A stretch of DNA of 64,000 nucleotides, taken from the NCBI GenBank assembly GCA_964036045.1, contig OZ038378.1, positions 50,344,001-50,408,000 of the forward strand, in the 5' to 3' direction. Source of the stretch: Eutreptiella sp. 'Long Island Sound 2002'. Lineage: Eukaryota; Protista; Euglenida. Positions 28,741-64,000 of this stretch are shown here, in pieces (the first letter of the stretch is position 1; every line of letters starts with the position of its first letter). Below the pieces are notes generated by a model. That model saw only the letters and a list, made by a program, of their open reading frames with translations, was not told the DNA's origin and ran no database searches. The translations under genes and the position numbers were made by a program.

Positions 28741-28960
28741 TTTTTAGAAAAACTTTTTACTAGGTAACAATTTACTAGGTTCACTAGTTTTTACTAGGTA
28801 TTGGGAACCTAGTAAAAAAATTTTTTTTACTGGGTTTCACAACCAAGTAAAAAAAAGTTCTTTTTACTAGGGTTCGAAACGTGGTAAAAAAAGTTTTTGT
28901 TTTTACTAGGTTTCGCAACCTGGTGAAAAAAAAGAGTTTTTGTTACTACGTTACTAGGTG
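28725..28960. repeat. Array of palindromic CCTAGTAAAAA / TTTTTACTAGG units
   Basis: About ten copies in alternating orientation, directly visible. Confidence 0.8.
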
Positions 28961-34399: not shown

Positions 34400-34807
34400 A
34401 CAGTTACTTGCACAAAATAGATGGAGGTGACTGCTTCATCACTATTTTTTTTCTGTTGCTTTTTTTTGCTCAACCTCAGCAGAGGACAGAAATTGCTCGT
34501 TGTTTCCAACAATGGGATCATCCAAGAACGGGCAAATGTCCTCACAACTTACCGCAAGATTGTTGCACATTGCAAATGTGGGGGCAGAGGGGTAATCTTG
34601 TGCGGTACACAAATACCCCAACACATCCATGCACGCTATGCGACGCAACTGAAAATCGAAGTGGCGTGCACAAGAATGCAATTGTTGGTACCTGAGGACA
34701 CACCGAATGTGCGAGCGACGTTCAACTGGCATGTCCACTGCACATCCATCTAGGATTGCAAGAAAGTGTGACCAAAATTCAGCACCGTAAGTATCAGACC
34801 CTGCAAC

Positions 34808-40549: not shown

Positions 40550-42780
40550 AATCTAACCTGTGCATGTGCAAAAGAGCGGGACTATGCACCCCATGGCACC
40601 CCAACACGCACCGCATTCCACAGGCAACCGTGGTATTTGTGCATCATGCATCTTTATGTATTTCTCTTGCGCCATGGGAACCGCCTCTCTCAGGTATGAA
40701 GGTGCTGCATGTTGGTTGGAAACCGTCTTCTTGTACGGGCCACGTGATTTTGTACAGTGAGGGGCATTTCCTAGTCTTGTGCCCTGTTGCTCGCATCCCA
40801 ACTGTTTGCCGCACGCCAATCATCAATGGTGTCGTTGTCCACGACCATTTGAAACCCTAGCCTAGGCGCAGGCCCTCGCTATTTGCACAACATGCGCTTT
40901 AGCATCCCCGTCCATGGAAACGCGGGAGAACTTTGACAAGATTCCCCATACACTTCACTGTGCACTTCTTTGGGAAAAAATAAACACCATTGATTCAAAG
41001 ATGCGTCCACAGAAGTTTGCCCTCATGGAGCTCATTATGCGCAATGCCCATGGCCAGACTACGTGCGCGGAGCCGCCGCAAGTTGGCACCAGGGAACGGT
41101 CAGCCAAGTGAAAAACATACCTTATCAAAAATATCCCTCTATGCCTTGCACACTGGCCTCCAATTTTTCCCTGCTGCCTAATGGTGCAATACATTTGGCT
41201 GTTGTAGGCAACATAGATAAACGAATATCTCACGTGGAGGGCCACTGCATGTGTTGCCCAAACCATCTTGGCGGCCAATTTTCAAGGAGGCACAGGTTGC
41301 TTCAAAAACTTGCACCCATTGAGCAATGAGAAGGTGAAAAAGAAAGGCAAGATCTGGATGGAGTTTGCTACCGCCCGTTGTGTCACTCCGCGTCCTGTCG
41401 GAAAGCAAACCCTATTTTGGTTGTTTCAAAATACTACTTTTCACTTGCAACGACCTATTTTTTGGGTATTTTGAATTGCGCAACCGCCTTATGCAACCGG
41501 TACCCCTTTTTGCAACCGCTTTATGCAACCCCTTCTGCAACCCCGAGGTGTTTTCGTGCAACCCCCTAAGCAACCCCAGTGCAACTTGCAACCCGTGAGC
41601 GACAATCACTGAATGAGGCAATGTTCGCACAAGCCAACCCATGGTGTGCCAGACACGGTGGTTTTGAGCCTACTTTTGTTTTTTTGTATATTGCCATACT
41701 ATAATGTCCACGCCTATGGGTGGCTGTCGAAACATGACCGGGTGTTATCCCGTGTCCTATGGTTTATGCACCATTTTTGTCGCGTTTTGTTAAACAAAGG
41801 AAGGGCGTGCCCAATGACGCACATGTTGTGGCTAAGCCATGGCTACCAAAGCAGGAGTCCGCGGAAAGTGCAACACCAGGTGGAATTTTTGTGGTCCACT
41901 AGCTTACTACTTTGGCCGGTGTTAGTTGGGGCTTACAACACCAGGCTTTGAGCACTACAAGAATATGTTGATCACGTAACTCCGGCATGAGTCGGCTAAA
42001 ACATAAAGCTTTAGCCAGGTCTGGTGGGGCTTTCGCGGAACAAACTGGCGAAGGCGACCAGGTTTTTTGCCTTTATGGGGGGCAATTGTTTCGTCCTCCG
42101 CGTAGCAAGCGCCGGAGTGCCAGGTGTGTTGACATTGGCGCTTGCACATGTGCAAAAGGTTGCAGATGTCTACCCTAAGCAACGTCCACAATAGGCAAAA
42201 AGTGCCAAAAAAACTATGCAACCGCCTTATGACACCGTGTTTTTTCAGCCGCAACCAAGAAAGCGACGTGTGCAACCGCCTTATGACACCGCTTTTTTCC
42301 GTGTGCAACCGCCGACATAGTTGTGCAATGTGTAATACTCGGCGCTTGCGACAAGGCCCCATTTCGGTCCTAGATGTCATCCACACGTCCACATTGTTGG
42401 TGAACTGCGGGTGTGTACCCTTCGTGAACGGGGGGTAAGTGGCCGCTTGAATGGGGGACGAACATTCGCGCGAATTTAGCCGAAGTTTGAGGTTTTGGGA
42501 GGAAAACACCATATTGTTGGTTGCTTCTTAGGAATTTGAGGGGGTAAAATTCATGCCCCAAATTCATTACACATCATCCAGTGAAAGTCCCGCCCCAAAC
42601 GCATCCACCATGCCCAAACGGCGCCCAAAATGAAAGGAGCCAAAAGCCGGCAAGCCTGTAGCCGACCCATAGGCATGAATTCGTACAAATCCATCCAAAT
42701 TTCACCCTTGTCCACCATCTCAGATGCTCCAACACCCGGAGTACCCCCCAATGCACCGCTGCATGCACGCTGGCCACAGG
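40550..42780 (-). pseudogene. Degenerate piggyBac-type transposase
   Basis: AEDETIAPHKGKKPGRLRQFVPRKPHQTWLKLYVLADS, then LSADSCFGS...FLCLTKRD and VAYNSQMY, follow the piggyBac motif order. Confidence 0.8.
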
Positions 42781-44479: not shown

Positions 44480-45312
44480 ACCACACACCCAAATACACAT
44501 GGACACACCGACCCACACACACACACACATCCGCACGAAAGGATCCACACACACAGGCAGACACACACAGACACACACATAGAGCTCCCCCCCTAAACAT
44601 TTAACCGTGACACATCCACTGTCCGGGTACATATGAGGGTGTGCGGGCGGGCGGTGTGTGGGTGTGGTTCGAGTGGGGGGATGTTTGCTTTCATTTGGGG
44701 TATGTGTGTGTTCGTGTATGGGTGTGTATGTGCATCTGTGTGTGTCTGTGTGTCTATGTGTGTGGGCGCCGGGGGGGCAGGTATGGGGAAATGTGTGTGG
44801 GTGTGGGGAATTCGGTGCATGCATAGGTGGTGTTGGTGTGGCTTTGCAAAAATGGTACGAAATTAGTATGAAGCTTGCAGGAAATTCCTACGAAATTCGT
44901 GCGAATTTTGTACGAATTTCGTTCAAAATTCGTCCCCAAAATGCCTCAAACGTAGGTACTATAAATGCGGTTGTTACGAATTTCATCCGAAATTCGTACG
45001 AATTCCGCATACTGTTCGAACAATTTGCAAGAACTCATATCATTTTTGTGCAGAGCAAACACACTCAGCCAATAGCACACAACACAGCAACACAACAACA
45101 ACACACAAGAACAACACGGTCGGGTCATGAGCAACAATCACCAATGAGGAGCGGCAGACAGACGAAGGACAACAAGCAGCAAGCAAAAAAAATATACCAA
45201 CACAGCCGAAAAGCAAGCATCACACACAGATCAATTAGCAGCAACACATTAGTCGGCAAACATCCAGCCATGGCAACCACTATACAAGAAACGCTATCGG
45301 GTAGCGTTTCAC

Positions 45313-46661
45313 TATATCCACTATCGAAGTCTCACAATTTCTTTGCAAAGAAATGCTATCGCCCACCCTCCATGGCGAAACCCGCATTCCCACGACAATG
45401 ACATCAAGAGGGGTAAAGAAGTCACGTTGAGTTGCGAAACGTCACCGTTTGTTGTGGCACCCCGTACATTCGGAGGCGGAATGGCTACCACATGGCTACT
45501 ACCTCTTAGCCATAAATAGGGAAGAACTACGGCGTGATGGTGCAGCTTTCACAAATCCATGACCCATGACGAGGCACTCGAGTCAACTTGGCACACCGAA
45601 GGTGGTAGGTTGCACGGCATGCATCACATGACACCCGTTGAAGAGCAACATTGTCACGTTTCCTGGGGATCGGCTCATCACACATATAGCATACACTCGG
45701 TTCCACCTTGGGTCTACATGGGGCCTTTTTAGGCTTCTTTGCTGCTGTGAAGGGGTTAGGCATGTCTTCAAACACCTGATTGTGTGCTACACCCTCCTCA
45801 CTAGGTGGGGCGGCAAAAGCTGCATCACGATATTCATTGATACCTTCTGCAAGTGAGGCAAACAAATCACCCTTCTGAGACAATTGAGTCGGAGGAAACT
45901 CTTCATACTTTGCTTCATCTCCGAAGGAAAGCTACGAGGAAACCACATAAGCATTCAACACATCGCAAGAATGCGAGTTCAACAAATCATCATCAGAGAT
46001 GGTACAAATACTTACTTGACGATTGTCCATCTCTTGGGGAGATTCAAGTTTCACTTTCATTGGTGAAGGGTTCTGTGGTGGTTTTGGGCAAGGTTCGTCT
46101 TTTATCTCTGGTTTGGGGCACGGTTCGGCTTCGCTTTGCTCCTCCTCTTTTGCCACATTGTGTTTGCTCAAGAGCATTGCTGCTTTGGATTGCACCTGTT
46201 TGCCTTTTTGGTGATATACATTTAGTGTCCTTGGCTGCACACCAACATGCTTTGCGGCATCATGCCTTCTCTTGCCGTTCTCTTGGTATTCTTGGGTTTT
46301 CCGGTTTGATCCTCATGATTCGGGTCATCCTAAAACATATCGCTATTGATTGGTTCTTTGTTACCTTCTGTCTTATCTTTGCATTCTTGAAGTACACGAG
46401 TGAATTGTTCTACACGGGGTGGCGTGGGCAGTTGTGCCTCGGAAACCTTGGAATCTTTCTTGGACATTGTTGTGCTATTCTAGTAAACACAGAGGGGGAA
46501 AAATGCACACTAAAATTTCTTTGCGAAGAAATGCTATCGCCAAACATTTCTTTGCGAAGAAATGATACCCCTTAGTGTTTCTTTGCAAAGAAATGCTATC
46601 TCCAGGAGGGTCGGCGATAGCATTTCTTTGCAAAGAAATTGTCAGACCGATAGTGGATATA
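45313..46661 (-). mobile_element. TA-flanked element with TIRs of about 65 bp (TATATCCACTATCG...TTTCTTTGCAAAGAAATGCTATCGCC) carrying a PHD-finger ORF
   Basis: Inverted terminal match at 45313-45375 and 46595-46661. Internal subterminal copies of TTTGC(G/A)AAGAAATG. Confidence 0.8.
45527..46240 (-). pseudogene. PHD-finger protein remnant, one in-frame stop at 45932
   Basis: CYMC...VSCDACRATYHLRC...WICESC is a C4HC3 pattern. ORFs 45932-46240 and 45527-45883 share a frame. Confidence 0.8.
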
Positions 46662-49600
46662 AAGCACAACCAACCAAGACACCACCAACCAAACAAAATT
46701 TTTGGCCTTTACTGTTTGGTTTTGTGGTTTATTTGTAAGCAATTGTGTGACGGTGTTGGACTGTGACGTTCTCTTTTCTATTGTGTGTGATTTAAGTTTG
46801 TTTGTTGCGTGGTCTTGGCTTTCTTTCGATGCATTTTTGATTGTGTGTTTTGTGTGTTTGGTACTGTTGTTTTTTTCTGTTTTCATGTTTGTTTTGTGTC
46901 TCGTGCTATGTTGCGTCGGATTGGTTGGACAAGGGGCAACTATTAGCATACACAGGGAGCCAAACTCGACAACAGCACAGCCGACATAGCTCTGCAACAC
47001 AACATGACAAGCGACATCCACATTACGCAAATGACACTAAAGCACTCGCCAGCCAGTACAACAAAAAAAGGGAAGTGTGGCAAAAGACACAAAATAGAGA
47101 CACAACATGGCTGACGAAACGAATGCAGTGAGCAACCAGTTGGAGTACTACAACATTGACTTGTCCAGCACCACCAATGAAGCACAAAAAGCACACAAGT
47201 GCAAGACAAACAACAATGAATCAAACCACGAATACAAATCCCAAGCATTGATAATCAGTGGCAAGGATGAAGGGTCAGGTGCCACAAATCGAGCACAAAG
47301 ACCAAGGCTCAGCGAGATCATCTAAACAACCAAAACAATGAGACACAAACACCACAAAAGTAGTGCGACACATGATTCACCAAAAGGCATCCACCCATCC
47401 AACCATCCACACCCACACACACCCAGACCCCCACAACCCAAGAACCACCAATGCATGCACACATCACCCACCCACGCACACACCATCCACCCAAGCCGAC
47501 ACAAACAACAACCGCTATGACCACGCACGCACACACCAACAAAAATGATACAAATTCGTGCAAACCGTTCGCACTTTGTGCAAAATTCGTACAAAGTTCG
47601 TACGAAATCCATGCGAAATTCGTAACAACCACATTCACAGTACCTATGTTTGAGGCACCTTGGGGACGAATTTCGTACGAAATTCGTACGAAGTGTGCAC
47701 AAATGTCGTATGAATTTCGTGCACACTTCGTACGAATTTCGTACCATTGTTGCAGCACACTGGCAGAAAAGCCACACAAACAGCACCTATGCACGCGCTG
47801 AAGTCCCCACACCCACTCACATTTCCCCATTCCCGCCCCCCCCCCCAAGCACACACACACACACACACCCATACACAAACACACACATACCCTCAATGAA
47901 AGCAAACAGCCCCCCCCCTCGACCCACACCCACACACCGCCCGCGCACACACCCTAATACGAAAGAGAGAAAGTCATACACAGGCATACATATACCCTCA
48001 ATGACATCGAGAAGCCCCCACTCCAGACACATCCACGATATGTTGCAGCACGAAACAACTACACGCAACATACCTCAAACTCGATGCACCCAATGGCACG
48101 AAGCCATGAACACGAATGTTGCTACCCGCTGGCGTGTGAACACCCAAGTCAGGATCCCTGTTGGTGGGTGAACAAATCCAACTCTTCTACCCGGCTGCAC
48201 GTGAGAATCTTGGAAGAGCCGACATCGAAGAATCAAGTAGTAGAAAAAACCTGTGAAGAGAAAAGGAGTACGCTCCCTAACCTTGACCGCACTGCAACAA
48301 GCAAGCCACCCTCATAACCCCAAACCCCGACACTCAGGGGGTGTAAGTGGAGGTCTGCTTGCCCCCCCCCCCCCTCCCAACCCTGGAAGGGTTGATTACG
48401 CTCCTACGGTTTGGCCCTATGGATCCCCCCACCCCACCCTCGTGCATCTACTAGCACCTATAATGTATGCTCTTCCTAACAAATGGGTGAGCAATGGAAC
48501 AATGGTTTGACCCCAATGGACCCCCCCCACCACTGCATCCACTATCACCTATAGGCTATGCCCTTTCCAACAACTTTGTGAGCAATGCAATAAAGCATAA
48601 GAAATGTAATGTGTAATGTTTCGATTTGTTATTTGTGTTCTAGTGTAGAACAGATGTAGGCCAGCATGATTCCTATTCTAGTCTACGTTCTAGCTAGATG
48701 TAGTAGGCTAGAATGCGCTCGCGATGTGGTTCTAGGCTAGAACGAAATCGTGTGTGCTGACGTGTATCTAGGGATCTACAAAACAAATTGTTCCATATCC
48801 AATGTATGCAACCAATAACGGTGACAAGACAAAATGGGGCCAATTCGTACGAATTCGCATCAAATCTTCAATCTTGAATTTGTGTCTCTTGTGTGAATCT
48901 ATGTGTGAATTTAGGTGCATTTGCACCAGGTTCGACCCAACAACACCAAATATGTGGAAACAGGTGGCTACTTAAAACGTTAAACTTCGACAAATTTACT
49001 GTAGCACCATTTTGGCGAAGATAGCACGAGAAACGCACAAGATGCCACCAAGTTACGCGCAACACACAGCCAAACATTGCCAAAATCGCACCTCTGCGAA
49101 ACTCCCATTCAAACGGCCGCTTCCGCAAAGGTACATGCGAAATGACAAAGCACAACACAAAGACAAGCTGCTCACAAATGCATTTGAAGCTACAGAGTAG
49201 CGATCACACGTCACCGATCTAGTCCGTGGTCAAAAAGGGCTTGCAGTGCAGCACAGTACCCACCCCACGGACCCTACCGTGAGCTCCCCCTTCCGTTTCT
49301 CTACTTGCAGTCCCGTTTACGTCTGGGATGACAACATTTCAGTGTTGTAAACTTCACCTTGGGGCCTCTAGAGGCTCAACGACGAAGGCCAAAGGCACCC
49401 ACATCAGAGTCCAAGTGTATCATACCACCAGCAGATGCTGCTCTATGCACATGTAAACCTGCAACGTAGTATGTAAGGGCACAGAGAACAGTGGAAAAAG
49501 CCGTGAAAAAATAGACAAAGCCCATCAGGAAGAGGGTGCACATATATGTGAAAATGTGGACCTTCAAAGCAACACGGGACGCCTGAAGTGAATGAATCAC

Positions 49601-50057
49601 ATCTGTAACAAAGCCTCGCCGTACAGAGCATGCATATATGCAGCATGCTTTCACATAGCACTGATGCATAAAATTGGCTGGCATTTAGCACCAAGCATCA
49701 TGTGAGACCATGGACTTTCCACAATGGGATGCGCTGTTCTAGGGCGTGCTGCGGAACCCCCCCAATTTTGGGGGTTGTTAATATGGTTGGGACCCGGACT
49801 TTCGCATGCTACATGGGTGCACTATGATGCAACAATGTGCCTTGCATGTCTGATTTGCTCAATAATTGCCCGTTTTGCATTTTTTGCGATTTGGTCTTTG
49901 TGTGCTCTAACTCGCGATCACCTAGTTATCGCGTGAGTTATCGCGCTAGTTTTCGCACGATAACTAGCTATCGCGCGAGTTATCGCGTAGGTTATTGCGC
50001 TTCCTTTTCTCTTGTCCCATGTTTCCCCTCTTCGCTTTGGCTCTCAAATACTTTGTA

Positions 50058-50741
50058 ATGGCCCTTGCTGCTGCCCACGCTTGGTGCGAGCACCATCAGA
50101 AACTCCTTGGGATCCGTCACCTTGGCGGACCCGAGGGGCTCACGATGGGTGACACCACTGTGAGGCGCCCTGTGGCGAGTCATTTCGAAAAGGGTGTGGA
50201 CTTTGGACTCATCGTCCATAAGTCCCCCTTCATGACCGACGAGAGGGACCCCCTGCTTCTCAGCAACTACATCTTCGAGTTGCTAGAGGTAAATCCGGGG
50301 GTTGCTGGATTTTTGATCCAGCTTCATCCGGAGGATGTGGACGCCGTGGTGGAGTCCGTCACCGCCCATGCCGAGAAGTGTGCGGGGACGAAGACGACCC
50401 TCTATGCGGGTCAGGAGGAAGAGGAGGAAGTGGAGGAGGAAGTGGAGGAGGTGGAGGAAAAGGGGGGTGGGAGGGGGAAGGACAAGCCCCACCACCCCCT
50501 CATGATTGATGTCCAGAAGGTAAGGATCCGACCTGGTAAGGGGAAGGGGAAGTCCGATGGTTGGTTCCCCCAACCCCTCACCCACAACACCCGGCGGGTC
50601 TGCACTGACGACCCCGAAACCAAGCTCACCATGCACTCCCTTTGCCCCACAAGGGAGTGGGAGCGTGAGTGGTATGGGATCACCACTCCCAACATTGTTT
50701 CGTGGCAGGGGGTGATTCTTTTTTGTTTTTGGAGCAACACC
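50058..50741 (+). pseudogene. B1 dioxygenase gene, part 1 (N-terminal domain), cut by element A
   Basis: LLEVNPGVAGFLIQLHPEDVDAVVESVTAHA aligns with YLEDTPAVPILQVWLHADDVDDVIQACTRRA in the element-A gene. The frame continues exactly at 57474. Confidence 0.75.
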
Positions 50742-50824
50742 TCGGGTGCGTCGCTAGAAGGTGTGCGCAAGAACCCCCCCCTTCTAGCGCCCTTTTTGCA
50801 TGATTACCCAAGCCACACCACCTT

Positions 50825-51144
50825 GGCTCCGATCGGGTTGGAAGTCAACCCCATGGGTCCACTAGACAGTGGCCCATTGTGGAGCGGTGCTCCAAAAGTA
50901 TCGCAACTCTTATGTGTTCAGCAGTATACCTGTGGAACACAGGCATAAGCCTTTCAAACTTGCTTTCAAAAACAGCATGCGTGGGTGGTGCCTTCACCGT
51001 CCACGCATTTCACGACGTGGTCTCACCCATGTATTGAACATGGAGACCCTTGACGTGGGGTTACGACACCGAGCGGCCCGGCAAAGGTTTGCCTTTGGCA
51101 AGGCCACAAAGGACCGAAGAAAAAGGCACTGCATGTACACTTGA
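50825..51144 (+). pseudogene. Element-A transposase C-terminus, flipped by a local inversion (about 50825-51457)
   Basis: GWKSTPWVH*TVAHCGAVLQKYRNSYVFSSIPVEHRHKPFK contains the third catalytic E candidate. The uninverted version is on the minus strand at 60663-60990. Confidence 0.75.
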
Positions 51145-51457
51145 GAAACCGAATTTGAACCGCGTGGATGCATTTGGTGCCCTTCCTGCAAAAATCCTCG
51201 GCGCAGAAACCCCCCCGCAGAAAGGGCGCAGAAATGGGGTTCTAGCGCACAAAGGGTGTGCAGAAAGGGTGCAGAAAGGGGGTTCTAGCGTAGAACGGGG
51301 GGTGCACAAAGGGCGCACAAAGGGTGCAGAAAGGGTGCAGAAAGGGCGCTAGAACCTCCCTCCCAGCAAAAGGGGGGGGGTGTAGAAAATCCGGCAAAAA
51401 GGATAGAAGTGAAAATCAGCCACCAAAAGGGGCGTAAACATGTGGTGAATGGCCCCC

Positions 51458-52803
51458 ACCTGAATGCCTCACCGATTTTACGGCAGTGAGTCTTGGCCTC
51501 TTGCACGTGACCATTGGTCAATGGTGTCTTTTGCCACCACAAGGCATATAGGCTACGCATATAGCGCAGCAACAGTTCAATAAGTGTCCACAAGAGGACA
51601 CCGCCAAACATGGTGTTAGGAAAATGGTTCCTGAGGCCATGTACAATTCGAACATGGTACTTGGGGTCTGTCAGGAACAACATAGAGGTGCTGATATCAA
51701 ATTGCCCTGCCTTAGTGGTCTTTTGGAAAAGCCTGTCTGCAGAAGCCACATGCTTTACATCTGCTCAAAGGGTATACCATATAGACAAACTCACTAGAAA
51801 TTCGCCGCACTCCAACAACACCCGGTGTTAACGTGGTAATAGTTTTTGTTAGGCGCTTCTTGAAAGCATTGGTTACCCTACAACCTGCGTGAGCATAGTC
51901 TCCAATGCGAATACAAACACTTCGAAGAAATGCCCCCCATTCAATTTTGTTTACTGTGCCCTCTATCGGCGCCAAGCCGGTGGCATCGGGGCAGCCCCAC
52001 CAACACTTGCCCCCCCCCCCCCCCTTCGTCACCATCATTAGTTTCCCATCCCTGGTCAGTTTACATTGAAACTTTTTGGTTTCGTTTTTGACTCGGAATG
52101 TACAACTTTCTTGTAGGATGATAATTTGGGCATTGAGGCCCGCATCCTCATCTAAAGCCTGCAACCTTGCGGCGTCATCGGGCCCATCCATGCAAACCCA
52201 CATCACCCATTTGTGGATGTCCCCTGTAGAAGAAAACCCCGAGGCCCAGCAGTTTACAAAAACATCGATCTTAGTGACCGATGTGTACCACAATGACGTT
52301 GCATCGGGGCATATTAAAATCCAAATCTTCTCAGTTTCCACTTCAAGCTCCCCTAGGGTCTCGGCTGTCTTCAACTGCGTAAAAACGAGGTCTTCTAGTG
52401 TTGCTGTCGCTGCGCATCGCCGCTCGATCATGTTGGGGCCATAGATAGCGTAGGTTGTGGTGGAGTACGGTGTTAACCTTGTGCGCGCTTCCGCATGATC
52501 GCGGCAAGTGCATTCACGCGGGAGGGCCAACATCTGCCGTATTGATAACTTCAATCTCCTACCGGTGGCCCATAGTTTGATTGCGCACACGACACAAGGG
52601 TCCTCGTCGTCGTCGTCGTGCCCGGCGAAACAAATGTACAAGCCCCAACCACCCTCAACGACAACTGCCTCCGGATCCACTAAAAGTTCCCGCATGATGG
52701 TCTGTATGTGGTGCCGCCGCTCTGCTCGGGCCTCCCCCTTGATGGCCCTATATGGCTTGAGCTGTGGAATGCTACCCACAAGTGCGGCAACTGCCTTCTC
52801 CAT
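51458..52803 (-). pseudogene. Element-A RAG1/Transib-like DDE transposase (N-terminal and core)
   Basis: ICPDATSLW (D1), LTRDGK (D2), CWWGC, and GDYAH (D-x2-H). A frameshift near 51750 leads into ORF 51285-51749. Confidence 0.75.
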
Positions 52804-53429
52804 GGTTTCTGTGACAAACGGGAAAGGTGTGACCGCTGGAACTCCTGCTGGAACCCCTTGCTAGAACCCCTTTCTGCGCTGGCACTGCTGGAACCCATGC
52901 TGGAACCCCTTCCGGCGCTGGAACCCCCTTCTAGCGGACCCTTCCAGCGAACCCTTCCAGCGCTGGAACCCCTTCTAGCACCCCTTCCAGCACCCCCTTC
53001 CAGCACTGCCCCCCCCCCCCTTGTTTTGCCTTACCCTCTCACTGAGCCCAAGGTACAAACATAGGCACAGTGCAACGTCATGGTCAACACTTTGCAATGT
53101 CGTACAGTGTATTCATGTGTTGCACCCCATGGTACCACCGCCTTCAGTCCAGAATCAAACAGGCTACAATAGTATACCAAAACTTTGAAGGAATGCATGC
53201 ATATAGGGCGTAAATCTTGGTGACGTCCCCAAGGGGTAGGCTATGTGAAGCCTCCCATTCGTGACACCACCTTAGGCACTTCCTGCACATCGCAACTGAT
53301 GTCCGACGCGAGGTAGCACGCAACCCAGGGGCTAAAACCAAAAAAGGTTTCCGTTCAAGGTGGCGCATTGCCGTCGGCACCATCGCAGCGCACCACGTAC
53401 CTGCACATGCACATGCACGTGTTATCTCA

Positions 53430-53625
53430 TGTCCCAACAGGTCTGCTCTGCAGGTCCCAAAAGGTCTGCTCTCTAGGTCCCAACAGGTCTGCTCTCCAAG
53501 TCCCAACAGGTGTGCTCTCCAGGTCCCTACAGGGCTCCTCTCCAGGTCCCAACCGGTCTCATCACCAGGTCCCAACAGGTGCCGACAGGTCTCGTCTCTA
53601 GGTCCCAAAAGGTCTCGTCTCCAGT
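53430..53625. repeat. Tandem repeat of about 22 bp (CAGGTCCCAACAGGTCTGCTCT), about 8 copies, just 3' of the element-A accessory gene
   Basis: Directly visible. Confidence 0.85.
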
Positions 53626-53627
53626 GC

Positions 53628-54635
53628 CTACGCCTTCTTGTAATTGCCCGCCAGCACCGCCAACAGCTGCTCCGCCTGTTGCTTTGCTTCAGCCGTCTTC
53701 GTGTTGCCCTCCACCAGCTGCTTCTTCATGCTCTCATTTTCCAGCTCCAACTCCCTGACCCGTTTCCGCGCGTTGTCCAACTGGGCCTCGGCGTTCGTCC
53801 GTCTCGTGCGCTCCGTGTCAAGTTGCTTGGTCGGCCGGCCAATCAGTGTCTCTGCCTTGCTCTGGGAGGCGTCAGACATCGCCTTTGCCAGTGCCGAAGG
53901 GACGCAATCTCTCAAGGTCACACTCATCTGTTGCGTCAAGGAGTCCTTGCACCACTGTACCACCTCGTCGGCCATAGCCCGAGCGTCAACCATTTGCTGG
54001 GACTGCTCGGACTGCTGGGACTGAGACTGCGATGACTGAGATGCCCGGGTTGTCTTGTCCTTGTCCTTGTCCTTGTCCCTGTCCTTGTCCTTGCGCTGGC
54101 CTTTGTCCTTGCCTTTCTGCTTTCGCTGGTCCTTGGCTTTGTCCTTGCCTTTGTCTTTGTCTTTGTCCTTCGGCTGCTCCTTGTCCTCGGCATCATCGTC
54201 GTCTCCTTCCACCTCAATCGCACCATCAACGTAACTCTCCTTGCGCTCGTTCACCCATGCAGCGCACACCTTCATGACGGACTCCGGGACCTCATCTCCT
54301 CCAACGCCTTGCAGCCCCCGCAGACCATACCACATGCTCCGCCCATCATGCTCATGGTACATCTGGTACGACCAAGATCGGTGCAGCCCTTTTCCAACGC
54401 CAAACATGAACTCAGCTCGCTTCTTGCCTTGCAGACCCTTTACTCGCACCGCAAAAAGGCACACCACCTTCATGCCGCTGGCTGTCGCCACATTGAGCTC
54501 CAGAACCTTGTACCACGGCGTTTGACCAAACTGGAACATGAGCTCTGCCATGGCCCCGGCTTTGCTGCTGCACTCGTTGGCCAAGTCACCTCCTCGCGGG
54601 CCTGCCACGCGACCTACACGCTGTCCACCACACAT
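53628..54635 (-). CDS. Element-A accessory protein: conserved N-terminal domain, KD-rich linker, C-terminal coiled coil
   Basis: 335-aa ORF. HDGRSMWYGLRGLQGVGGDEVPESVMKVCAAWV matches YTGREVWRKLHRGG...KAPQSVCDATATWV in B1. The heptad-like tail is LDNARKRVRELELENESMKKQL. Confidence 0.7.
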   Translation of the reverse strand: MCGGQRVGRVAGPRGGDLANECSSKAGAMAELMFQFGQTPWYKVLELNVATASGMKVVCLFAVRVKGLQGKKRAEFMFGVGKGLHRSWSYQMYHEHDGRSMWYGLRGLQGVGGDEVPESVMKVCAAWVNERKESYVDGAIEVEGDDDDAEDKEQPKDKDKDKGKDKAKDQRKQKGKDKGQRKDKDRDKDKDKDKTTRASQSSQSQSQQSEQSQQMVDARAMADEVVQWCKDSLTQQMSVTLRDCVPSALAKAMSDASQSKAETLIGRPTKQLDTERTRRTNAEAQLDNARKRVRELELENESMKKQLVEGNTKTAEAKQQAEQLLAVLAGNYKKA

Positions 54636-54997
54636 ACTACAGTGCCCCCTCGCGCCTGCGGCCCAGCCACCGACTCGTCCCGCTGTACCAGTTGCGGCCA
54701 GACATCCACTTTAGCCTGAAGAAAGACGAAATGGAGGTGAAACGGGTGATACGATACCTGCTGGAACCCCTGCTACAACCCTTGCTGGAACCCCTTTCTG
54801 CGCTGGAACCCCTAGCTAAAACCGTGCTGGAACGCCCGTTCGAGTGCTAGAACCCCTTCCAGCACCTTTCTGGCACCCTTCCAGCAGAACCTTCCAACGC
54901 TAGAACCCCTTCCAGCGACCCTTTCAGCGACCTTCCAGCACCCCCCCCCCTCCGAGGCCTGTTTTGCCCAAAGCCTTAGCCCCACCAGACTGCCGGC

Positions 54998-57085
54998 TCA
55001 TAATTGTTGGCAAGGGCATCCATACTCCTTCGGGCGCTCAGGGTTGGCCGGCAGAAGCCCCAATTGGACCCGGACAGACGCGTCAACGACGCTCGGGTGG
55101 GTGCAGGCAACATCCCATCGAAGTACTTGGGCGACCGGGGGGTCCGAGGTGTCCTCCACCACTGCCATCCCACCCACCTGGCCTTCACGCACCACGCTGC
55201 GTGGCGATGACGGGGAACTTGCTTGGGGTCGGGGCCTCCAACTCCTCCTCCTCGTGGACAAAGGTACCAAGGGGATAATTTTCGGGGGCGCAGGGTTGGG
55301 CGGACGCGTCGATCACCGGCCTGGTAGAAATCTTTGCCGCCAGCGGCCCTGGGCAATGGGTGGTGTACAGCACCGTCTGGTCCAAGGGCATCATCACCAG
55401 AGCCGCAAACCCGCATAGATCCTCCTCCACGATCTTCTGCTTCCCCAGGTCCTCATCGACTTCCTCTGCTCCCTCGGCCGACATCACCACGGCCTCCACA
55501 GCAGCTCGAGGGGCGGCCTCCACAGCAGGTCCAGGGGCGGCCTCCAAAGCAGGGTCTCCGGAATCCCGGTGACAGTCTTCACAGAGTTGCCCGACATGTA
55601 GAGCACAAAAGGGACGTTCGTCACAGGCGAAACGGTTCGCCGGCGGGTCGGCCTTCACCACGCGGTTGCACTGCGCTTCTTTACAGTGCACGACCTTCGG
55701 GGACGGTGGCGACGGTTGTTGCGCGGGGGCTTCAGCCCAGGGTGGCGGGATGATCGGCCCGGTGGTCTCGTAGTTGACGCGGCATGTGGCAATGGCGGCA
55801 AAGGCGATGATACCGGTTGATCCAGGCGGCACATCTCTCGGGACAGCCCCACCACGGTGAATGATGTACCTGCTCAGGATCTACAGCTCGCCCGCCAGCA
55901 TACTCATCGAGACCTCCTGCCACAGATAGGGAACACCAGAGCCAGAACCGTACAGGAACATGTTCTCGCGGCCGTCCATGGGGCAGTCCACATTCACGGG
56001 CATGAAGCAGGAGAAGGCGTGCTCCACCCAAAGGGTTTGCAACTCCAGCGGCAGATGCCGATGCCATAGTTGTGGCTGATCCAACGTTGCCCGGACATAC
56101 CCAACCTTCACTAAGAACAAACCCGGGTATTTCGTAGAGAGGGCTTGCAGATTGCTTTGCGGCCAAAGTACAACGTGAGGAAGCTGAAGACCTTCTTGAC
56201 CCCCATTACCCGTAGGAATCACCGCGTACACCGCAGCCCTGTCGCCTGGATCAGGTGGCCGGTTTGGGCTTGGCCATGCCAGGTTGAAGATGCCGCCCCA
56301 CCTCTGACCCACGTTGTCCGCCTCGATCTTCATGTTCGCCGGCATGTCACCATCCCTCGCCAGGAAATCGTCCTTGAACACGTGCACCGTCCGACCCAAC
56401 TCCGAGAGTTCCTCGTTCGCTTCCCGGAAGATGTCCACCTGCTACACCGTTTCGCTTGTCCCAATGAGCGGCAAGGCGTGGCACGTGGGGAGGGGCAAGA
56501 CCGCGTCCTCGCTCTCCATCAGCACCGGTGTAGTCAACCCCACGAGCTCCGGCTTCCAACGGTAGGGGGAGTGGCTGGTGAAGGAGTAGTTGGGCAGGGC
56601 CATGGCGGGCTTGCTGTCCACCACGTACCGGAGGGTGTTGAGGTGGGGGTGCTTGAAGGGGTACTTGTCCTTCCCGGCCTTCTTGGTGGTGGGCTTGTGG
56701 GCGGCGAAGAGGAGCGTGGTACCCTCCGTCCCCACATGACGCCGTTGCATATTGTTAACGGTGGGGTTCGCCCTCCTGGTGCAGGCTTGGATGACATCAT
56801 CCACGTCGTCGGCATGCAGCCAGACCTGCAGGATCGGCACAGCGGGGGTGTCCTCCAAGTAACCCTGCAGCCAGTCCCTAAGGGCTCAAGGTGGCTTGTC
56901 GGCGGCGGGGAGGGGGCGCGTGAGGCGGATGCGGGCAATGGTGGTGCCCGAGGGGATCGCCACCTTGGTGTCGGGGTGGGCGGTGAGGTTGGTGCAGCCC
57001 AAGCCATGGGGCCAGCATAGCCCCGAGTGCCCACGGCAGCCCAGGCAGCCTTGGCCCAGTCCACCGAGGGGGCCAACAAAGGCAT
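54998..57085 (-). pseudogene. Element-A multidomain 2OG-Fe(II) dioxygenase-like gene (DSBH domain, Cys/His finger, C-terminal domain)
   Basis: ORFs 56442-56858, 55881-56438 and 55185-55832 share one frame, split by single TAGs. Motifs: QLWHRHLP (HxD position, H in place of D), FSCFMPV, YIIHRGGA (distal His), GIIAFAAI, then CKEAQC...CDERPFCALHVGQLCEDC. Confidence 0.7.
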
Positions 57086-57090
57086 GTGGG

Positions 57091-57280
57091 CTGAAATGCA
57101 AGGGAACAAAGGTGAAACAAAGGTGCTGGAACCCCTGCTGGAACCCCTTGCTGGAACCCCTTTCTGCGCTGGAACCCTCTGCTGCAACCTTGCTGGAACC
57201 CCCTTTCTGCGCTGGAATCCCTGCTAGATCCCCTGCTGGAACCCCCCTTTCTGCGCTGGAACCCCTGCTGGAACCCACCT
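57091..57280 (-). promoter_or_regulatory. GGGTTCCAGC repeat array plus pyrimidine tract and AG acceptor upstream of the element-A dioxygenase; equivalent modules at 54716-54950 and 52809-53010
   Basis: On the sense strand: array, then TTCCCTTGCATTTCAG|CCCACATG. The others read GTCTTTCTTCAG| (54716) and CCCGTTTGTCACAG|AAACCATG (52809). Confidence 0.6.
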
Positions 57281-57473
57281 TTGTGCGCTTTTCATCATTT
57301 TTGGAAAATCAACATCTGTGTGGCCCTTCACAACCTAGGCGTGCTTTGGACTTAGGACACTACAGGAACTCCTACAGTGACTCTTAGGCATTGTAAACGC
57401 GTGCACATCGTGGTTCTAGTGGTACCCAAAAGGGGGGGAGGTTTCTGCGCACACCTTCTACCGACGCACCCCA

Positions 57474-58027
57474 CCCCTCCTTATTGGGGAGGCCGAGGAA
57501 GTGGGTGCGGCAGAGCCCATGGGGGCCTGGAATAGGGATCCAAATGATCTTGTGGTCACCACCGGGGACAAGTTGGTGGTGAACCGCTTGCTGGAGCATT
57601 ATTTTTTGAGTGATGTGCAGCTCGACAGTCTTTTGGGTGATCTTGAGAGGGTGCCTCTCTAAGAGAAGGCAGCCATTTTCAATGAGAACCCCCCCATTGT
57701 GGGCAGGCCACAAGATGAAGGGACCCGCCACACAATGTATGGCAACTATGGGGGGCGCAACCACCATAAGCACAAGCCCCACCAGCTGCACGATCTGCCG
57801 GTGCTCAAAAGGGTCGCAGAGCGTGTGGTTGAGACTGCGAAGAAGAGTGTGGTGGGGCGGGTTGGGTGGAGCAGCACCATTCTTGACATGGCACCAATTT
57901 GAGGCTATGACCACACCCTGCAGCACCACCATCGCGATGCCCCCCCCTACATTGTGCCTGAAGGCACATTGATTGTTAATTGCCTCGTTATGCTCACCCA
58001 TAATCATGAGGCCGATGATGGGTTGCA
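57474..58027 (+). pseudogene. B1 dioxygenase gene, part 2, containing the HxD motif
   Basis: AIFNENPP...GTRHTMY...LQHHHRDAPP...IVNCLVML, with two in-frame stops. It ends at the inversion breakpoint. Confidence 0.72.
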
Positions 58028-58209
58028 TTTTCTTTTTTTGCCCTCCAGCATTTCGGGGTTCCCAGCCTCTTCTCCCCCTCCAGCTCTGCACGGGCCGCCA
58101 CCGGCTTGGGGCCCCGTGCCCGTGCTGCTTCTGCTGCTCCTCCTCCTGCTGCTGCTGCTGCCTCCGCTGCCTCCTTGACGAAGAGAAGCGGGAGCTGCAG
58201 GATTGTGGC

Positions 58210-58410
58210 CTGGGAAGAACAAAAGAAACAAAAAAAACACGCAATAGCTACCGCGATAACTCGCGCGATAACCTAGTTAGAGCGCGACAACACATGCGAT
58301 AACCCCCGCGATAACCCCCGCGATAACTAATTCGAACGCGACAACCCAGCACGATAACTAGTTAGAGCACCCAGCTAGAGCGCGATAACTGCCGCAATAA
58401 CTAGTTAGAG
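58210..58410 (-). promoter_or_regulatory. GTTATCGCG repeat array plus pyrimidine tract and AG acceptor upstream of the B1 accessory gene; same array at 49915-49990, 39310-39420 and 26725-26880
   Basis: On the sense strand: array, then TTTTTGTTTCTTTTGTTCTTCCCAG| at 58210. The array always reads TTATCGCG on the sense strand of the gene that follows. Confidence 0.6.
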
Positions 58411-58442
58411 CAAAGGTTAGAGCAGTGTGTAGTGGGCACTTT

Positions 58443-59313
58443 TCACACCTGGTGACATGGGCACATGCCTTTGCCCGCCTCCTTCTTGGGGTCGTCGAGC
58501 ACCAAGTTCACCCTCCGCAGCCAGACGAAGTCCGTGAGGGCTGCATACTCCTGAACTTGCCTCTACTCCACAACCTGGGCCACCCCCTCGAGCTCAAGGG
58601 GGATCCTTGCCACTCCTCCATACATTCCCTTCCTCACCACCAAAATGGTGCCAGCCGGCACCTTAATCCCAACATGCCCTTGCAAGGTGGGCCACGGTAG
58701 TGCCTCCCCATGGCACACCTTGGCCAAGGGGCACTGATCGGGGTGGCCTGCGACCCCCACCTCCTCAGTCCTGAGGGGGGCAACCACCTCCCTCCCAACC
58801 CTCCACCAAGACAACAAAAAATGCCCGGTGTTTGTTCCCACCGGGAGCAATCATTGACCACATTGCTCAATGTTGACCCCATTGGGGTCCTCCACCAACT
58901 ACTCCTTCTCCCTCCCCTCCGGCTCCTCCCCCTCCTGGCATGGCACACGAAGACCATCTTTGTGTGCGGCACACAAACCCGCCCGCTCGCAGCCGTAGCA
59001 CTTGGCAACAACCTTCCCCCTACACCTAACCGCCCCCTCACATGGCGCTGTCTTGGGACCCCGAGCACCATGTGCCCCTAGCTGGGGCCGCTTAATGGCC
59101 TGGGTGACATGCAGGTTGGAGAACCGCAGGTTAGGGCCTTGGGTTAGCTCAATTGCAAAAAATGCCATGAGGCGAGGATGGGTCACACCAGTTGGCGAGG
59201 CCTTTGGAATGCCCAACACCCGGTGTACATCAAGGGCATTAAAAAAAAAGGCAGTGCCCCTCTTGAATGGCAAAGCCCTCTCGACCCAAGGGTTAGTGCC
59301 GGAGGGGGCAACC
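58443..59313 (-). pseudogene. B1 dioxygenase gene, part 3 (distal His, Arg, Cys/His finger, C-terminal domain), inverted
   Basis: WVERALPFKRGTAFFFNALDVHRVLG...HPRLMAFFAI, CYGCERAGLCAAH and VVRKGMYGG...CPCHQV all align with the element-A gene. Confidence 0.75.
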
Positions 59314-61900
59314 TGGCGGTGGGGGCAGCCGGCGCACGAGGCCTGCCAGATGGGGGGGACCGGATGGTACCGCCAGGTCACCATCACGGGGAAGGAGGGG
59401 GGGTGGAGAGGGAGACCAACTTCACCCTCCCCTCCTATCTGTGGGTTCGGGGTAGACGGCCAAATAGCCGAATCCTGCTGAGGGGGAAATGGTTGCGGCT
59501 TTGTTGTGTTTGTTTGGGATGAGTGCCCCCCCCCCCCCCAAAGGAAAAGTTTTTTTTGTTGAGGCTGTGCTTCATTGATGAAGCATCGGGGGAGTACACT
59601 GGGAGGGAAGTGTGGCGGAAGCTGCACAGGGGGGGGGGGGGGGGGGCATCCACCAGGTTGGGGGGTACAAGGCCCCCCAATCTGTGTGTGATGCAACTGC
59701 CACATGGGTCCAGTCGTATGCGCCTAAGGGGGGAAGTCCCACCAAGCATATGAAGCGGGGGCTGAGCTGGTGGTCGTTGAGCCGGATGCCCCCCCCACCC
59801 CTAAGGGTAAGGCTCCCACCCCCTCCCCCGAGCCGTCGTAGGTGGACAAGGTGGCGGCCTAACCCCCCCCCCCCCCCCAAGGCCCTTGATGTGGGGGCCT
59901 TGGCGGCTAGTGTGGCGACCCACGTGACGGACACTTGCAAGACTTTGGTCGACCAAGCGGCCGCCACGGGGGTGGAGGCCGCCCTGGCCAAGGGTCGGGC
60001 GGCCGACCAAAAGTCGGCCTTGTCGAAGGCCTAGAAGGTCAAGGGCAACACTCAGCGCGCCCTGCACCAGGCCCTCAACTTGGCCACGAAGAGGGGAGAG
60101 GAGCTGGGGACGGTGCGGGGGGGCCTGAAGGAGGCCGAGGAGGGGAGGCAGAAGGCCGAGGTGGACGAGGCCCAGCTGAGGGTGGAGGTGGAGGCGCTGC
60201 GGAGGACTGGGGATGACCTCCAACACGCCTGGGGGTGGCTGGGGCGCAGGTGCGCAGCCTCACCTCCACCCTCAGTGCCACCTTCACCGCCCATTAGGGG
60301 CCGGGTCTGGGGTGCGTCGCTAGAAGGTGTGCGCAAGACCCCTCTTTCTAGCGCCCTTTTTGCATGATTACCCAAGCCACACCACCTTGTGTGGTTGGCA
60401 AGTGGTTTGGGGCCATTCACCACATGTTTACGCCCCTTTTGGTGCCTGATTTTCAGTTTTGTCCGAAACGGTCGGTTTTGCCAGATTTTCTACACCCCCC
60501 CCCTTTTGCTGGAAGGGGGGTTCTAGAACCCTTTCTTCACCCTTTCTGCACCCTGTGTGCGCTGGAACCCCCGTTCTGCACCATTTCTGCGGGGGGGTTT
60601 CTGCGCCAAGGATTTTTGCAAGAAGGGCACCAAATCCATCCACCGGGTTCAAATTTGGTTTCTCAAGCGTACATGCAGTGCCTTTTTCTTCGGTCCTTTG
60701 TGGCCTCGCCAAAGGTAAAGCTTTGCCGTGCCGCTCGGTGTCGTAACCCCACGTCAAGGGCCTCCACGTTCACTACATGGGTGAGACCACGTCGTGAAAC
60801 GCGTGGGCGGCGAAGGCACCACCCACGCATGCTGCTTTTGAAAGCAAGTTTGAAAGGCGTATGCCTATGTTGTGCAGGTATACTGCTGAACACATAAAGG
60901 TTACGATACTTTTGGAGCACCGCTCCACAATAGGCCACTGTCTAGTGGACCCATGGGGTTGACTTCCAACCCAATCGGAGCCATGCCTCACCGATTTTAC
61001 GGCAGTAAGACTTGGCCTCTTGCACGTGACCATTGGTCAATGGTGTGTTTTGCCTCTACAAGGCATATAGGCTACGCATATTGCGCCACAACACTTCGAT
61101 AATAACATTTGGAAATTCGAAATAGCGTGTGGCCCTTCACAACCTAGGCTTGCTTTGGACTTAGGACACTTATGGGAACTCCTACAGTGACTCTTAGGCA
61201 TTGTAAACGCGTGCACATCGTGGTTCTAGTGGTACCCAAAAGGGGGGGGGGGGGTTCTGCGCACACCTTCTAGCGACGCACCCCATTCACCAGGAGTGCA
61301 ATGTCAGGGTAGCCAGAGCAGGAGTGGGAGTCAATGACTGGTGGATTTGCTCAAGGGGTTGCCTAAGGGCATTTTTCGTGGGGAGGAGCGATATGGGGCC
61401 CAAGTGGACATGTGCCACTTCAGCCTAGTGGGAAGCGGAAACCCCAGCCGCTCTGATTTTAGGGCGACCAACATGGCTGCTGCTACCCTGAGGCCTCCCC
61501 TCACCCCCTTGGTTGTGGGGCTGAATGAGTATTGCACTTGGAATGCTCCGCCATGGTTCACATGGTATCCAAGTTGTTTTGCCCCCAAGGGACGGACACC
61601 ATGGGCCTTCACGCCCATTTGCGTGCTGGGGCGCCCATGGCGCTGATTGTGTGTGTGGGGTCTTTCAGGGGGGGAGATTTTGGGTTGAGAGTGGTGGCCT
61701 GCCGAATCCCTCCCTGATGGACAAAAAGCGGCACACACCTGTGAGCAAGAGTAGGGAGGTGGGGGGTCGGGCATGCAAGGCCACGCCCGAAGCCCCGGTG
61801 TTGCTCAACACCCGGGCACTACACACTCCATTGCCATGGGAGGGTGAGCGACGGAGCGTGATTTTTCACAGTGCAGAGGGGTCGCTGCATTGCACGCCTA
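59314..61900 (+). pseudogene. B1 accessory gene remnant, with its N-terminus inverted at 58028-58209 and interrupted by A' at 60308-61285
   Basis: WRWGQPAHEACQMGG matches WRWMEPRSEACRMGT in B3. It has YTGREVWRKLH and a coiled coil (LKEAEEGRQKAEVDEAQLRVEVEALRR). DNA after 61285 matches B3 at 27000-27560. Confidence 0.65.
60308..61285 (-). mobile_element. Internally deleted family-A derivative (A'), 978 bp, both TIRs intact
   Basis: TGGGGTGCGTCGCTAGAAGGTGTGCGCA at both ends. 61128-61285 is nearly identical to 57320-57473. It retains only the transposase C-terminus. Confidence 0.9.
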
Positions 61901-61987
61901 TGTGGCGGTAACAGCTTGTGGGCCTAGGTTTTAGGGTCCTTGCTTCAAAACCCTCCCTCATTTCCCGCCCAGGACCTCTTATTCTTC

Positions 61988-63635
61988 ATGGATGTTGCTG
62001 ATAATGAGGCACTGAGGGCTCTGAATTCCGCTAACCTGCGGCGGTACACCGATTTGCAATGTCCCAAGGTCCCGCGCCGGCGGTTGAAGGCTGTTCCGAG
62101 GCTGGTTCGAATTCTATTGGGGGATCCCAACATTGTGTGTGGCACCAACACCAAAGGAGAAGGTTCTTTGAGTGGCGGGGCGTGCACAGCCATCTATGGC
62201 ACACTTGGTGGCCATCTTGCATTCAAAGCTCAAGAGCATGAGGCCCTGAGCATGCTACGCATGGCATGCAGCATGCATCTTTCCCGGCGTGCGTTTTTGC
62301 GAATGCGCCGCCGTTGTACCCAACGGGACCTAAGGACCATTCAACAACGGATAATGCCCTACTTTCCCCAAGCAACTATTGTAAGGTCTACCACAGGCCG
62401 CAATAGGGCAGCTGCCCATGTGCCTTTGCAGTTAATTGTGCATAATGCGATATATATGGCCCGAGTTGTTGGCAAACCCCCCCCTAGTGGCGTTGCCATT
62501 GTTGTCATTTCAGTTGATGTGACTTCCTTGTGGAAGGCATCCTCTACCCGTGGGGATGTATGGATCAATGTATGGGGGGGGGGGGGGGCAAAGTATGCTT
62601 CGGGGGTGAAGCTATGGGCCTCATGGTTTTGCATGGATGGCGGGGATGAAGAGGCTTTTTTGAGAAGCCTGGACATCTCCGCCAACCTCAACGAAGAAGT
62701 GAGGGATGTGGAGGAGGACCTTTTCCTCTTTCAAAACCAATTTTTGACTTGCATTGTTATTTTGACGGGGGATGGGAACGGGATGCAAGCAATGGGGGCG
62801 GGGGGTCTAAGTGTTGGTTGTGCAAAGACCCCAATGGTATTGTTGAGCAAATGGGGGTGGAGACCACCTCCGGAGGGGGGGCATTTTTGAGATGTGTGAC
62901 CCCCGATAGACGGCCGGGGGACTACCAACATGCGGCATGCCGCATTCTAAGAGGCATTGCAGGGCGCACTGAGACCACCCTTCAGGCCCTCCCCCCTGGT
63001 ACTTGCTAAGGGCCAAGCTCTTGCAGCTTTGCAGGCCTTCAAACAAGCCCTGCAGGAGCCATTCCTATGAGGGAACGTCTCCCCTCGGCCTCAAGGGCCC
63101 GGGGAAAAGGATTTCGATCTCACAAAGAGCAAAGTTTTCCAAACCTCCCTTCCAAAGACAATTTGTGGATCTCCTCAAAGATCATGACCCCACAGTGAGG
63201 AGCCCTTATGGACCTCTATTGTGGGTTGTTGTTCATGTCATGGTAAAATGCATTGAGGGTTGGTATGAGCTTTGGAGGATGAGGGAGATGCACACTCTAA
63301 TCCAAGTGGAACGCCACCGTGCGTTGACCACAAACTTTTCAAAAGCTTGGGGAGACTCGGGTTGGTCCCCCACCAAGTGGATCCATTGGTGCTTGGCACA
63401 TTCCACTTTTTTTGCCGAGAAATGGAGGACTATTTTTCACTTTTCCTCCATCCCAACGGACTATCGGCATGGGCCTTACAAGAGGAGGCTCAAAAATTGT
63501 TTTAAGGGTTGGTCCTTGGTGAGGCCAAATATTTCCCTCCGCCACATGCACCATTGCATGTCCATGAACGCCCTAGAGCAAGGGCTTTTGGGACTAGAGG
63601 CAGGCAAGGCCTCAGACATTGACGAGTTTGTGTGA
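61988..63635 (+). pseudogene. B1 RAG1/Transib-like DDE transposase, frameshifted at about 62795 and about 63000
   Basis: ISVDVTSLW, LTGDGNG, KCWLCK, GDYQHAACR, and PTKWIHWCLAHSTFFAEKWRTIFHFSSIPTDYRH. The last parallels RAG1 [28 protein letters not shown] in spacing. Confidence 0.78.
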
Positions 63636-64000
63636 AGAAAGACCATAAATGCTTAGTGCCAAGTGCTTTGTGTTGTTTGTCCGAGTGAGGGATGGAGGCT
63701 AGATGGGTGTTCCGGAAATTGTGCTCTAACTAGGGGTTCCGCACCACGCCCTAGAACGCTGCATCCCAAAAAAAAGTGCTTTCCGCAACAAAACTTCCGA
63801 ACTGAAATCACACAAACAACATTCTCGGAAAATCAAGGCAACATATATATACCCATCCATGCCCACAAGAAACCATGCCAAGAAGTGACGCTGGTCATAA
63901 TTCGGCAAAATCATTGCACGCCATTTCCTGCTCATTCGTTGCTGGGGTGAGTTAGTGCACTGCAGCGTAAGTCAGACTCGCTCCCTCACGGGCCCAGCCA

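Follow-up and report, generated by a model that had tools for sequence, protein, structure and literature searches.

Nested transposon copies with a predicted dioxygenase gene

The 64,000-nucleotide stretch of the Eutreptiella sp. 'Long Island Sound 2002' assembly analyzed here (contig OZ038378.1, positions 50,344,001 to 50,408,000; hereafter the window) contains two dead copies, one nested in the other, of the first gene of a family of DNA transposons with terminal inverted repeats (TIRs). The gene encodes a four-part protein comprising an N-terminal domain, a catalytic core, a Cys/His finger and a C-terminal domain, and the core is predicted to be a PhyH-type Fe(II)/2-oxoglutarate (2OG) dioxygenase. 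From this context we infer a nucleic-acid or chromatin substrate, and propose that the enzyme oxidizes a methyl mark on the DNA or chromatin of its own element, thereby loosening host silencing. We assign this reading a probability of about 0.5.

Element B occupies positions 49726..63767 on the plus strand, with TIRs that start with GGGATGC and match at 31 of their first 35 bases. Element A (50744..57471, minus strand; TIRs starting with GGGTGCGTCG, 25 of the first 26 bases matching) is inserted in open reading frame 1 (ORF1) of B. An intact 680-residue database protein, P0127, is collinear with three segments of B ORF1, at 50145–50729 (+), 57468–58064 (+) and 59321–58446 (−), with 77–84% identity. 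The first piece (50145..50738, plus strand; 84% identity) encodes the N-terminal domain, corresponding to residues 1–197 of the intact protein. The second (57468..58064, plus strand; 79%) covers residues 200–397, carries the H-R-D motif at 57930–57938 and is interrupted by premature stops at 57660 and 57900. The third (58443..59321, minus strand; 77%) is inverted, contains three premature stops and covers residues from about 398 to 680, including the distal His, the Arg, the finger (58938–59042, minus strand) and the C-terminal domain; the sequences DVHR and PRLM are found at 59231–59220 and 59177–59166, respectively, on the minus strand. The iron triad of this copy is intact.

ORF1 of element A (54998..57085, minus strand) is a pseudogene in six-frame translation, with in-frame stops at 56888, 56444 and 55883 and frameshifts near 57010 and near 55200. 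At 56055..56063 (minus strand), H-R-H (in WHRH) replaces the family state H-R-D, the codon CAT lying one base from GAT. The distal His, within IIHRGG, is located at 55857–55859 (minus strand). A Gly codon (GGT, 55812–55814, minus strand), likewise one base from the family state, occupies the position of the 2OG-binding Arg. The A copy in the window thus lacks two of the four active-site residues, owing to the Asp-to-His and Arg-to-Gly changes. Its finger (55572..55685, minus strand) lacks one Cys, and the end of the C-terminal domain (55001..55213, minus strand) closes with CxCxQ.

The initial annotation, made by eye from the sequence, had proposed a four-part transposon cargo protein with an Fe/2OG ligand set, split by nesting and inversion. 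Residue conservation and element context support this proposal, and the motifs named for both copies were recovered by six-frame translation at the positions given above. The Asp change in A had been recognized correctly, while the loss of the Arg had been overlooked. Besides the collinearity with P0127, the A insertion, the inversion and a second A remnant are confirmed by contigs of other public runs that join across them. The junction 50723→57472 occurs on two contigs of run X1 and one of run X13, the junction 58063→59299, on opposite strands, on two contigs of X1, and the junction 60307→61290 on three contigs of X1. Since no more than 28% of element A's words occur in these runs, their contigs come from related sequence and not from this copy; none of the runs listed as containing such words is of RNA. 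A 6-bp near-duplication (5 of 6 positions) flanks A within B, consistent with the empty site on the contigs of the other runs; a clear target-site duplication was not found at the other three bounded copies of the window. All four bounded copies carry TIRs of about 26–35 bases that begin with GGG and end with CCC. Local inversions are present in both elements, at 58064–59299 in B and 50825–51456 in A.

Intact relatives and conservation of the active site

Judged from their sequences, intact natural copies of the gene are numerous. A search with the A core gave 119 matches among 472 candidates, all from ENA except the window's own ORF and nearly all on contigs of 0.1–5 Mb, and the B core gave 44 matches among 643 longer candidates. 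Two B clusters at 90% identity contain 491 and 220 members, of which 40 each were inspected, and one protein (P0179) recurs identically on 17 contigs; all of these proteins may derive from one assembly. A profile search of 1.84 billion representatives yielded 293 matches at E ≤ 0.001. Among the best 150 of these, 133 were new and 30 were less than 55% identical to both A and B; 27 of the 30 form the divergent set used below, the three at 49–55% identity being left out. Together with A and B, this set falls into 23 clusters at 45% identity, and several of its members are full length (696–775 residues) with all four parts present. In the catalytic-domain tree A and B are separate, with the order of the backbone unsettled.

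The four catalytic positions, H353, D355, H421 and R438 in the numbering of the intact B protein, are conserved across this collection. Among the matches covering each position, the A relatives keep them in 59/62, 52/61, 40/48 and 31/40 cases, and the B relatives in 58/63, 54/63, 45/49 and 42/44. The corresponding counts for ungapped rows of the 27 divergent relatives are 24/25, 22/25, 26/26 and 21/24, and with one representative per cluster they are 22/23, 20/23, 22/22 and 18/20. All four residues are present in each of the nine distinct full-length B proteins fetched. The triad is accordingly the majority state in all three sets of relatives, more often than chance would give. The initial annotation had suggested expressing a repaired consensus, which the existence of intact natural copies makes unnecessary for an assay.

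These data bear on the possibility that a fragment of a host gene was captured by chance and is carried passively, with no function for the element. In favor of such a capture, neither copy in the window is intact, and among the database members many proteins are truncated or chimeric. This explanation was already disfavored and is highly improbable, because the gene is the first ORF in two elements of the same gene order (dioxygenase, ORF2 with its coiled-coil-like tail, a third ORF that varies, and transposase) whose proteins share 24% identity (P0127 versus A ORF1, E = 1e-16), because young copies are full length with the triad intact, and because no named host gene occurs among the matches. 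In 20 proteins looked up, no cluster member bore a name other than 'hypothetical protein'. No relatives were found in viral_contigs, metagenome_contigs, genome_contigs or GenBank phages, in scans that reach close relatives only; one viral_contigs locus was rejected as a chance match inside another giant-virus ORF. Many B copies are in-frame deletion chimeras that fuse ORF1 to ORF2, ORF3 or the transposase, as in P0124, P0125, P0126, P0163 and P0182.

Predicted fold and clade of the catalytic core

The H-x-D...H triad, the late Arg and the structure prediction place the core in the Fe(II)/2OG dioxygenase superfamily, the predicted model being a double-stranded β-helix (DSBH) as the initial annotation had anticipated. 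The annotation could not separate the TET/JBP, AlkB and PhyH clans by eye; profile and structure comparisons point to PhyH as the nearest clade, and neither TET/JBP nor AlkB is the closest neighbor in sequence or structure searches. The top Pfam family is PF05721, matched by 8 of 40 members at E ≤ 0.5. Against its gathering score of 22 bits, the intact B protein reaches 15.8–16.5 bits and A gives no match, while two relatives exceed the threshold (P0301, 30.7 bits; P0334, 24.3 bits). Profile searches of the PDB retrieved FtmOx1 (E = 2e-5) and 9wyc (E = 3e-6), Foldseek placed AndA and AsqJ in its top rows, and ESM features scored 0.95 to a cluster in which 25% of the members carry PhyH. No JmjC protein appears among the best 50 rows of the fold search, and a BFVD search returned generic 2OG oxygenases. 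When the pieces from the window were searched as single sequences, neither Pfam nor the PDB returned a match, and a profile built from A and B alone gave no real match in the PDB.

The core shares with PhyH-type enzymes (PF05721; FtmOx1, AsqJ, OkaE, AndA, EasH, PHYHD1) the DSBH, the Q-x-x-H-R-D motif, the distal H-x-G-G and the late Arg, and these enzymes are its best profile and fold matches. In contrast to their solved chains of about 270–330 residues, to which the core is 11–18% identical, the present protein has a 200-residue N-terminal domain, two predicted zinc-binding parts and a location in a transposon. Another conceivable substrate is a protein with no part in chromatin marking (the element's transposase, the ORF2 product or a host regulator, for example), which the enzyme would modify in the manner of the PHD/EGLN prolyl hydroxylases, with the AN1-like finger and the C-terminal domain as protein-binding modules. 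In the VIA-align structure comparison alone, PHD2 ties with PhyH-type enzymes. We regard this alternative as quite unlikely, since the PDB profile searches contain no prolyl hydroxylase while PhyH-type enzymes reach E values of 3e-6 to 2e-5, and since the Foldseek top rows listed are all PhyH-type small-molecule enzymes.

Flanking domains

The N-terminal 200 residues adopt a partly confident predicted fold, with a predicted local distance difference test score of 73–93 at residues 11–90, and carry a conserved motif of their own, P-x-x-S-L...W...G-x-T-T-P. Searches with this domain gave no match beyond a ribosomal protein at E = 0.26. The motif LH.[DE]DVD.V described in the initial annotation is present in both A and B, although the B part lies at 50145–50738, outside the range 54998–59313 given for it, and in more distant relatives conservation is limited to the Leu and the position of the helix.

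The finger is predicted to be a binuclear zinc finger with eight ligands, C482, C488, C496, C499, C505, H/C508, C513 and C516. The pattern CxxC-CxxC-CxxH-CxxC is seen in 12 of 29 proteins, many of the others ending before the finger. The piggyBac cysteine-rich domain and AN1-type fingers have eight Cys/His ligands in the same order (C, C, C, C, C, H/C, C, C), although in most members here the first pair is spaced more widely and none of the matches reaches significance (E = 0.011 to 1.3). The piggyBac domain is reported to bind transposon DNA and the related PiggyMac domain to bind histone H3 (PMC8086355; PMC5861402). The C-terminal domain is β-rich, with conserved C586-P, H593, C675 and C677, and likely holds a second zinc site of the C/H/C/C type. 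Nothing like it was found in the ESM Atlas, PDB or Pfam (best ESM feature score 0.78, TM ≤ 0.32, with fold searches run on the whole protein), and the reader-like character that the annotation had ascribed to it finds no support there. A likeness to PUA/EVE-type readers, noted by eye, was likewise unsupported and was dropped.

CpG decay, motif arrays and a possible action on the element itself

When copies in the window are compared with one another, C/T and G/A differences are seen at 29 of 151 CpG sites versus 78 of 1010 other sites (p = 3e-5). This CpG-biased decay fits CpG methylation of these elements by the host, as read from the pattern of decay. Both elements also carry family-specific motif arrays. 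The A-specific motif GCTGGAACCC forms arrays upstream of ORF1 (57125..57276), ORF2 (54760–54899) and the transposase gene (52835–52971), with 17 exact matches in the window against 0.26 expected. The CpG-containing B-type motif CGCGATAAC forms arrays upstream of ORF1 (49913–49991) and, before the inversion, upstream of ORF2 (58252..58393), with 13 exact matches against 0.18 expected.

In the mechanism we propose, H353, D355 and H421 would bind Fe(II) and R438 would bind 2OG, and the enzyme would be brought to the motif arrays, or to nucleosomes close by, through the finger, the C-terminal domain or the ORF2 product. The docked enzyme could then hydroxylate 5-methylcytosine, another base or a methylated chromatin protein, so that the transposase promoter would stay usable and the element transcribable. 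Of the two kinds of substrate within this proposal, a DNA base is the one we tentatively favor, and a chromatin protein is unlikely.

Several points weigh against an action on DNA or chromatin. The nearest characterized relatives, FtmOx1, AsqJ, OkaE, AndA, EasH and SnoK, have small-molecule substrates. PHYHD1 and related enzymes are reported to demethylate free 2'-O-methyl nucleosides, with no activity on nucleotides or on methylated RNA (PMC12709175). Promoters or transposase sites would account for the motif arrays just as well. The finger matches AN1 fingers (E = 0.011–0.43) better than piggyBac (E = 1.1–1.3), neither of them significantly, and the N- and C-terminal domains are without matches and have no net basic character. 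Cargo status rests on elements A and B, the divergent members lying mostly on contigs of 1–8 kb, and stand-alone relatives of the core without a finger exist (P0292, P0315 and P0288; 203–224 residues, on contigs of up to 23 kb from JGI/IMG and ENA), whose context could bear on the origin of the family. The first and last of these points, together with the PHYHD1 activity and the fact that every significant solved relative is a small-molecule enzyme, speak for a small-molecule substrate, such as a modified nucleoside or a metabolite, with the element keeping the gene for an indirect benefit. We consider this unlikely, because it fails to explain why two predicted zinc-binding accessory domains are kept over about 75% divergence and why at least two selfish families, distantly related and of high copy number, retain the gene. 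A PhyH fold has also reportedly been recruited to an RNA-editing complex, probably as an inactive protein (PMC5855954).

Dioxygenase cargo in mobile elements has precedents from other clades. Fungal DNA transposons, among them the CMCT lineages EnSpm, ESTA and Plavaka, are reported to carry TET/JBP dioxygenases; as here, a 2OG/Fe(II) dioxygenase gene lies inside a complete TIR transposon, the transposase shows C(2)C and H(3-4)H motifs, and escape from methylation-based silencing has been proposed (Kojima 2025, PMC12730594). In Phalaenopsis, Ty3/Gypsy elements carry a fixed AlkB-type ORF, plausibly directed against host surveillance, for which activity on N6-methyladenosine in RNA is reported; unlike the present case, that element is a retrotransposon and its enzyme belongs to the AlkB clade, whereas here a DNA transposon carries a PhyH-clade enzyme known from sequence (PMC9289625). 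By analogy with this orchid cargo, the substrate might be RNA, either the element's mRNA or small RNAs that target the element, which we judge improbable. A third comparison is with VANC of the Arabidopsis VANDAL elements, which is not known to be an oxygenase. It too is an accessory gene of a DNA transposon, and VANC anti-silencing proteins are reported to target family-specific short motifs in non-coding tandem arrays (PMC5735166). In the literature, with few subscription papers and without Repbase covered, we found no PhyH-type transposon cargo, no such architecture and no description of these elements, TET/JBP and AlkB being the only precedents found.

The protein family is without a name; dioxygenase cargo as such is already known. 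What sets this cargo apart is that it comes from a clade whose characterized members act on small molecules, is fused to two predicted zinc-binding parts and remains intact in hundreds of young copies. If the enzyme acts on DNA or chromatin, it would found a family of epigenetic modifiers not seen before, whose sequence targeting might be built in; if it is a small-molecule enzyme, the retention of a metabolic enzyme by selfish elements would be a puzzle. The intact natural genes make the question of the substrate directly assayable. A more speculative extension, which we consider doubtful, is that modification of polymeric DNA arose among 2OG oxygenases along a third line, in addition to those of TET/JBP and AlkB. 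Unclassified GGG-ended RAG1-like transposons would have spread a PhyH-clade enzyme whose zinc modules are themselves sequence-specific; it would read the family-specific CpG-containing arrays and write or erase a modified base on the element that encodes it, and in family B a second, H-x-H-type oxygenase encoded by ORF3 would take part.

Transposase and remaining open reading frames

The transposases of A (51453..52809, minus strand, with the C-terminal end inverted at 50800–51060) and B (61931..63635, plus strand, decayed) show, by eye, the same motif series of D, D, CxxC, DxxH, HxxxxH and E. P0182 includes a transposase part in which the motifs SVD (683), TGDGK (766), CWLC (782), DYQH (818), HWCLAH (978) and SIPTE (999) can be read. 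This series corresponds to the motif set described by Kojima for the CMCT clade with RAG1 and Transib (PMC12730594), and the motifs suggest a DDE-type, RAG1/Transib-like enzyme. No Pfam or PDB match was obtained, including to RAG1, Transib and Plavaka profiles, from a shallow alignment. A target-site duplication of 2–5 bp also belongs to the description of the clade, against 6 bp for the near-duplication around A. Since the 5'-CA..TG-3' termini usual in this clade are absent from all four bounded copies, we refer to the transposon as RAG1/Transib-like and unclassified.

ORF2 of A (53628..54548, minus strand) has a β-rich N-terminal part, a charged linker and a coiled-coil-like tail, and matches no curated family in PHROGs or NCBIfam. 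ORF2 of B (59330..60309, plus strand) is decayed, shares a short stretch of homology with it and is cut by an A-type remnant bounded by TIRs (60310–61283). The third ORF of A (about 53000–53420) differs from ORF3 of B, and a 23-bp tandem repeat of at least eight copies lies between ORF2 and the third ORF of A (53405–53644). ORF3 of B (61341..61941, plus strand; about 205 residues) is a candidate second oxygenase-like gene with the pattern H-x-H...H...R-x-S. By eye, its product (P0361) resembles TET/JBP-like oxygenases, whose pattern we take to be G-x-F-x-G-G-x-F-W...F-N...H...E-R-x-S. P0361 gave no Pfam, PDB, PHROG or NCBIfam match, and no relationship between ORF3 and ORF1 was detectable by sequence comparison.

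A third related element, more decayed, lies at about 25500–28800 (minus strand), with ORF2, ORF3 and transposase 45–60% identical to those of B and a CGCGATAAC array at 26723–26849; neither its ends nor a dioxygenase gene of its own could be located. Its ORF3 copy (27544–26927, minus strand) has, like that of B, H-x-H instead of H-x-D. A second, internally deleted copy of B (32840–39594, minus strand) retains the ends and transposase pieces only, and is split at about 33400–38600 by an element of unrelated type, in which a long decayed ORF and a PHD finger (33593–34027, E = 0.007) are found.

Other features of the window

A Pfam-type scan covered 75 ORFs of the window, and its matches mark the host as a eukaryote. 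An ESCO1/2 (Eco1) acetyltransferase domain at 16001–16816 (minus strand, E = 1e-28) is probably the last exon of a host gene. A remnant of a piggyBac-type transposase (DDE_Tnp_1_7) lies at 41955–42527 (minus strand, E = 7e-5) and a PHD finger at 45527–45931 (minus strand, E = 4e-6). Inverted repeats at 44632–45049 and 47539–47959, with 11-bp subrepeats, suggest further elements. Positions 1–7000 consist of a GC-rich (about 76%) 419-bp satellite with two related halves and an inverted block at 4727–5725. Finally, 10-bp tandem arrays (GGGGAATTAT-like) at 19417–19735 and 21007–21870, in inverted orientation, surround a 422-codon ORF (19694–20962, minus strand) that contains Cys/His clusters, has no Pfam match and is possibly part of another element.

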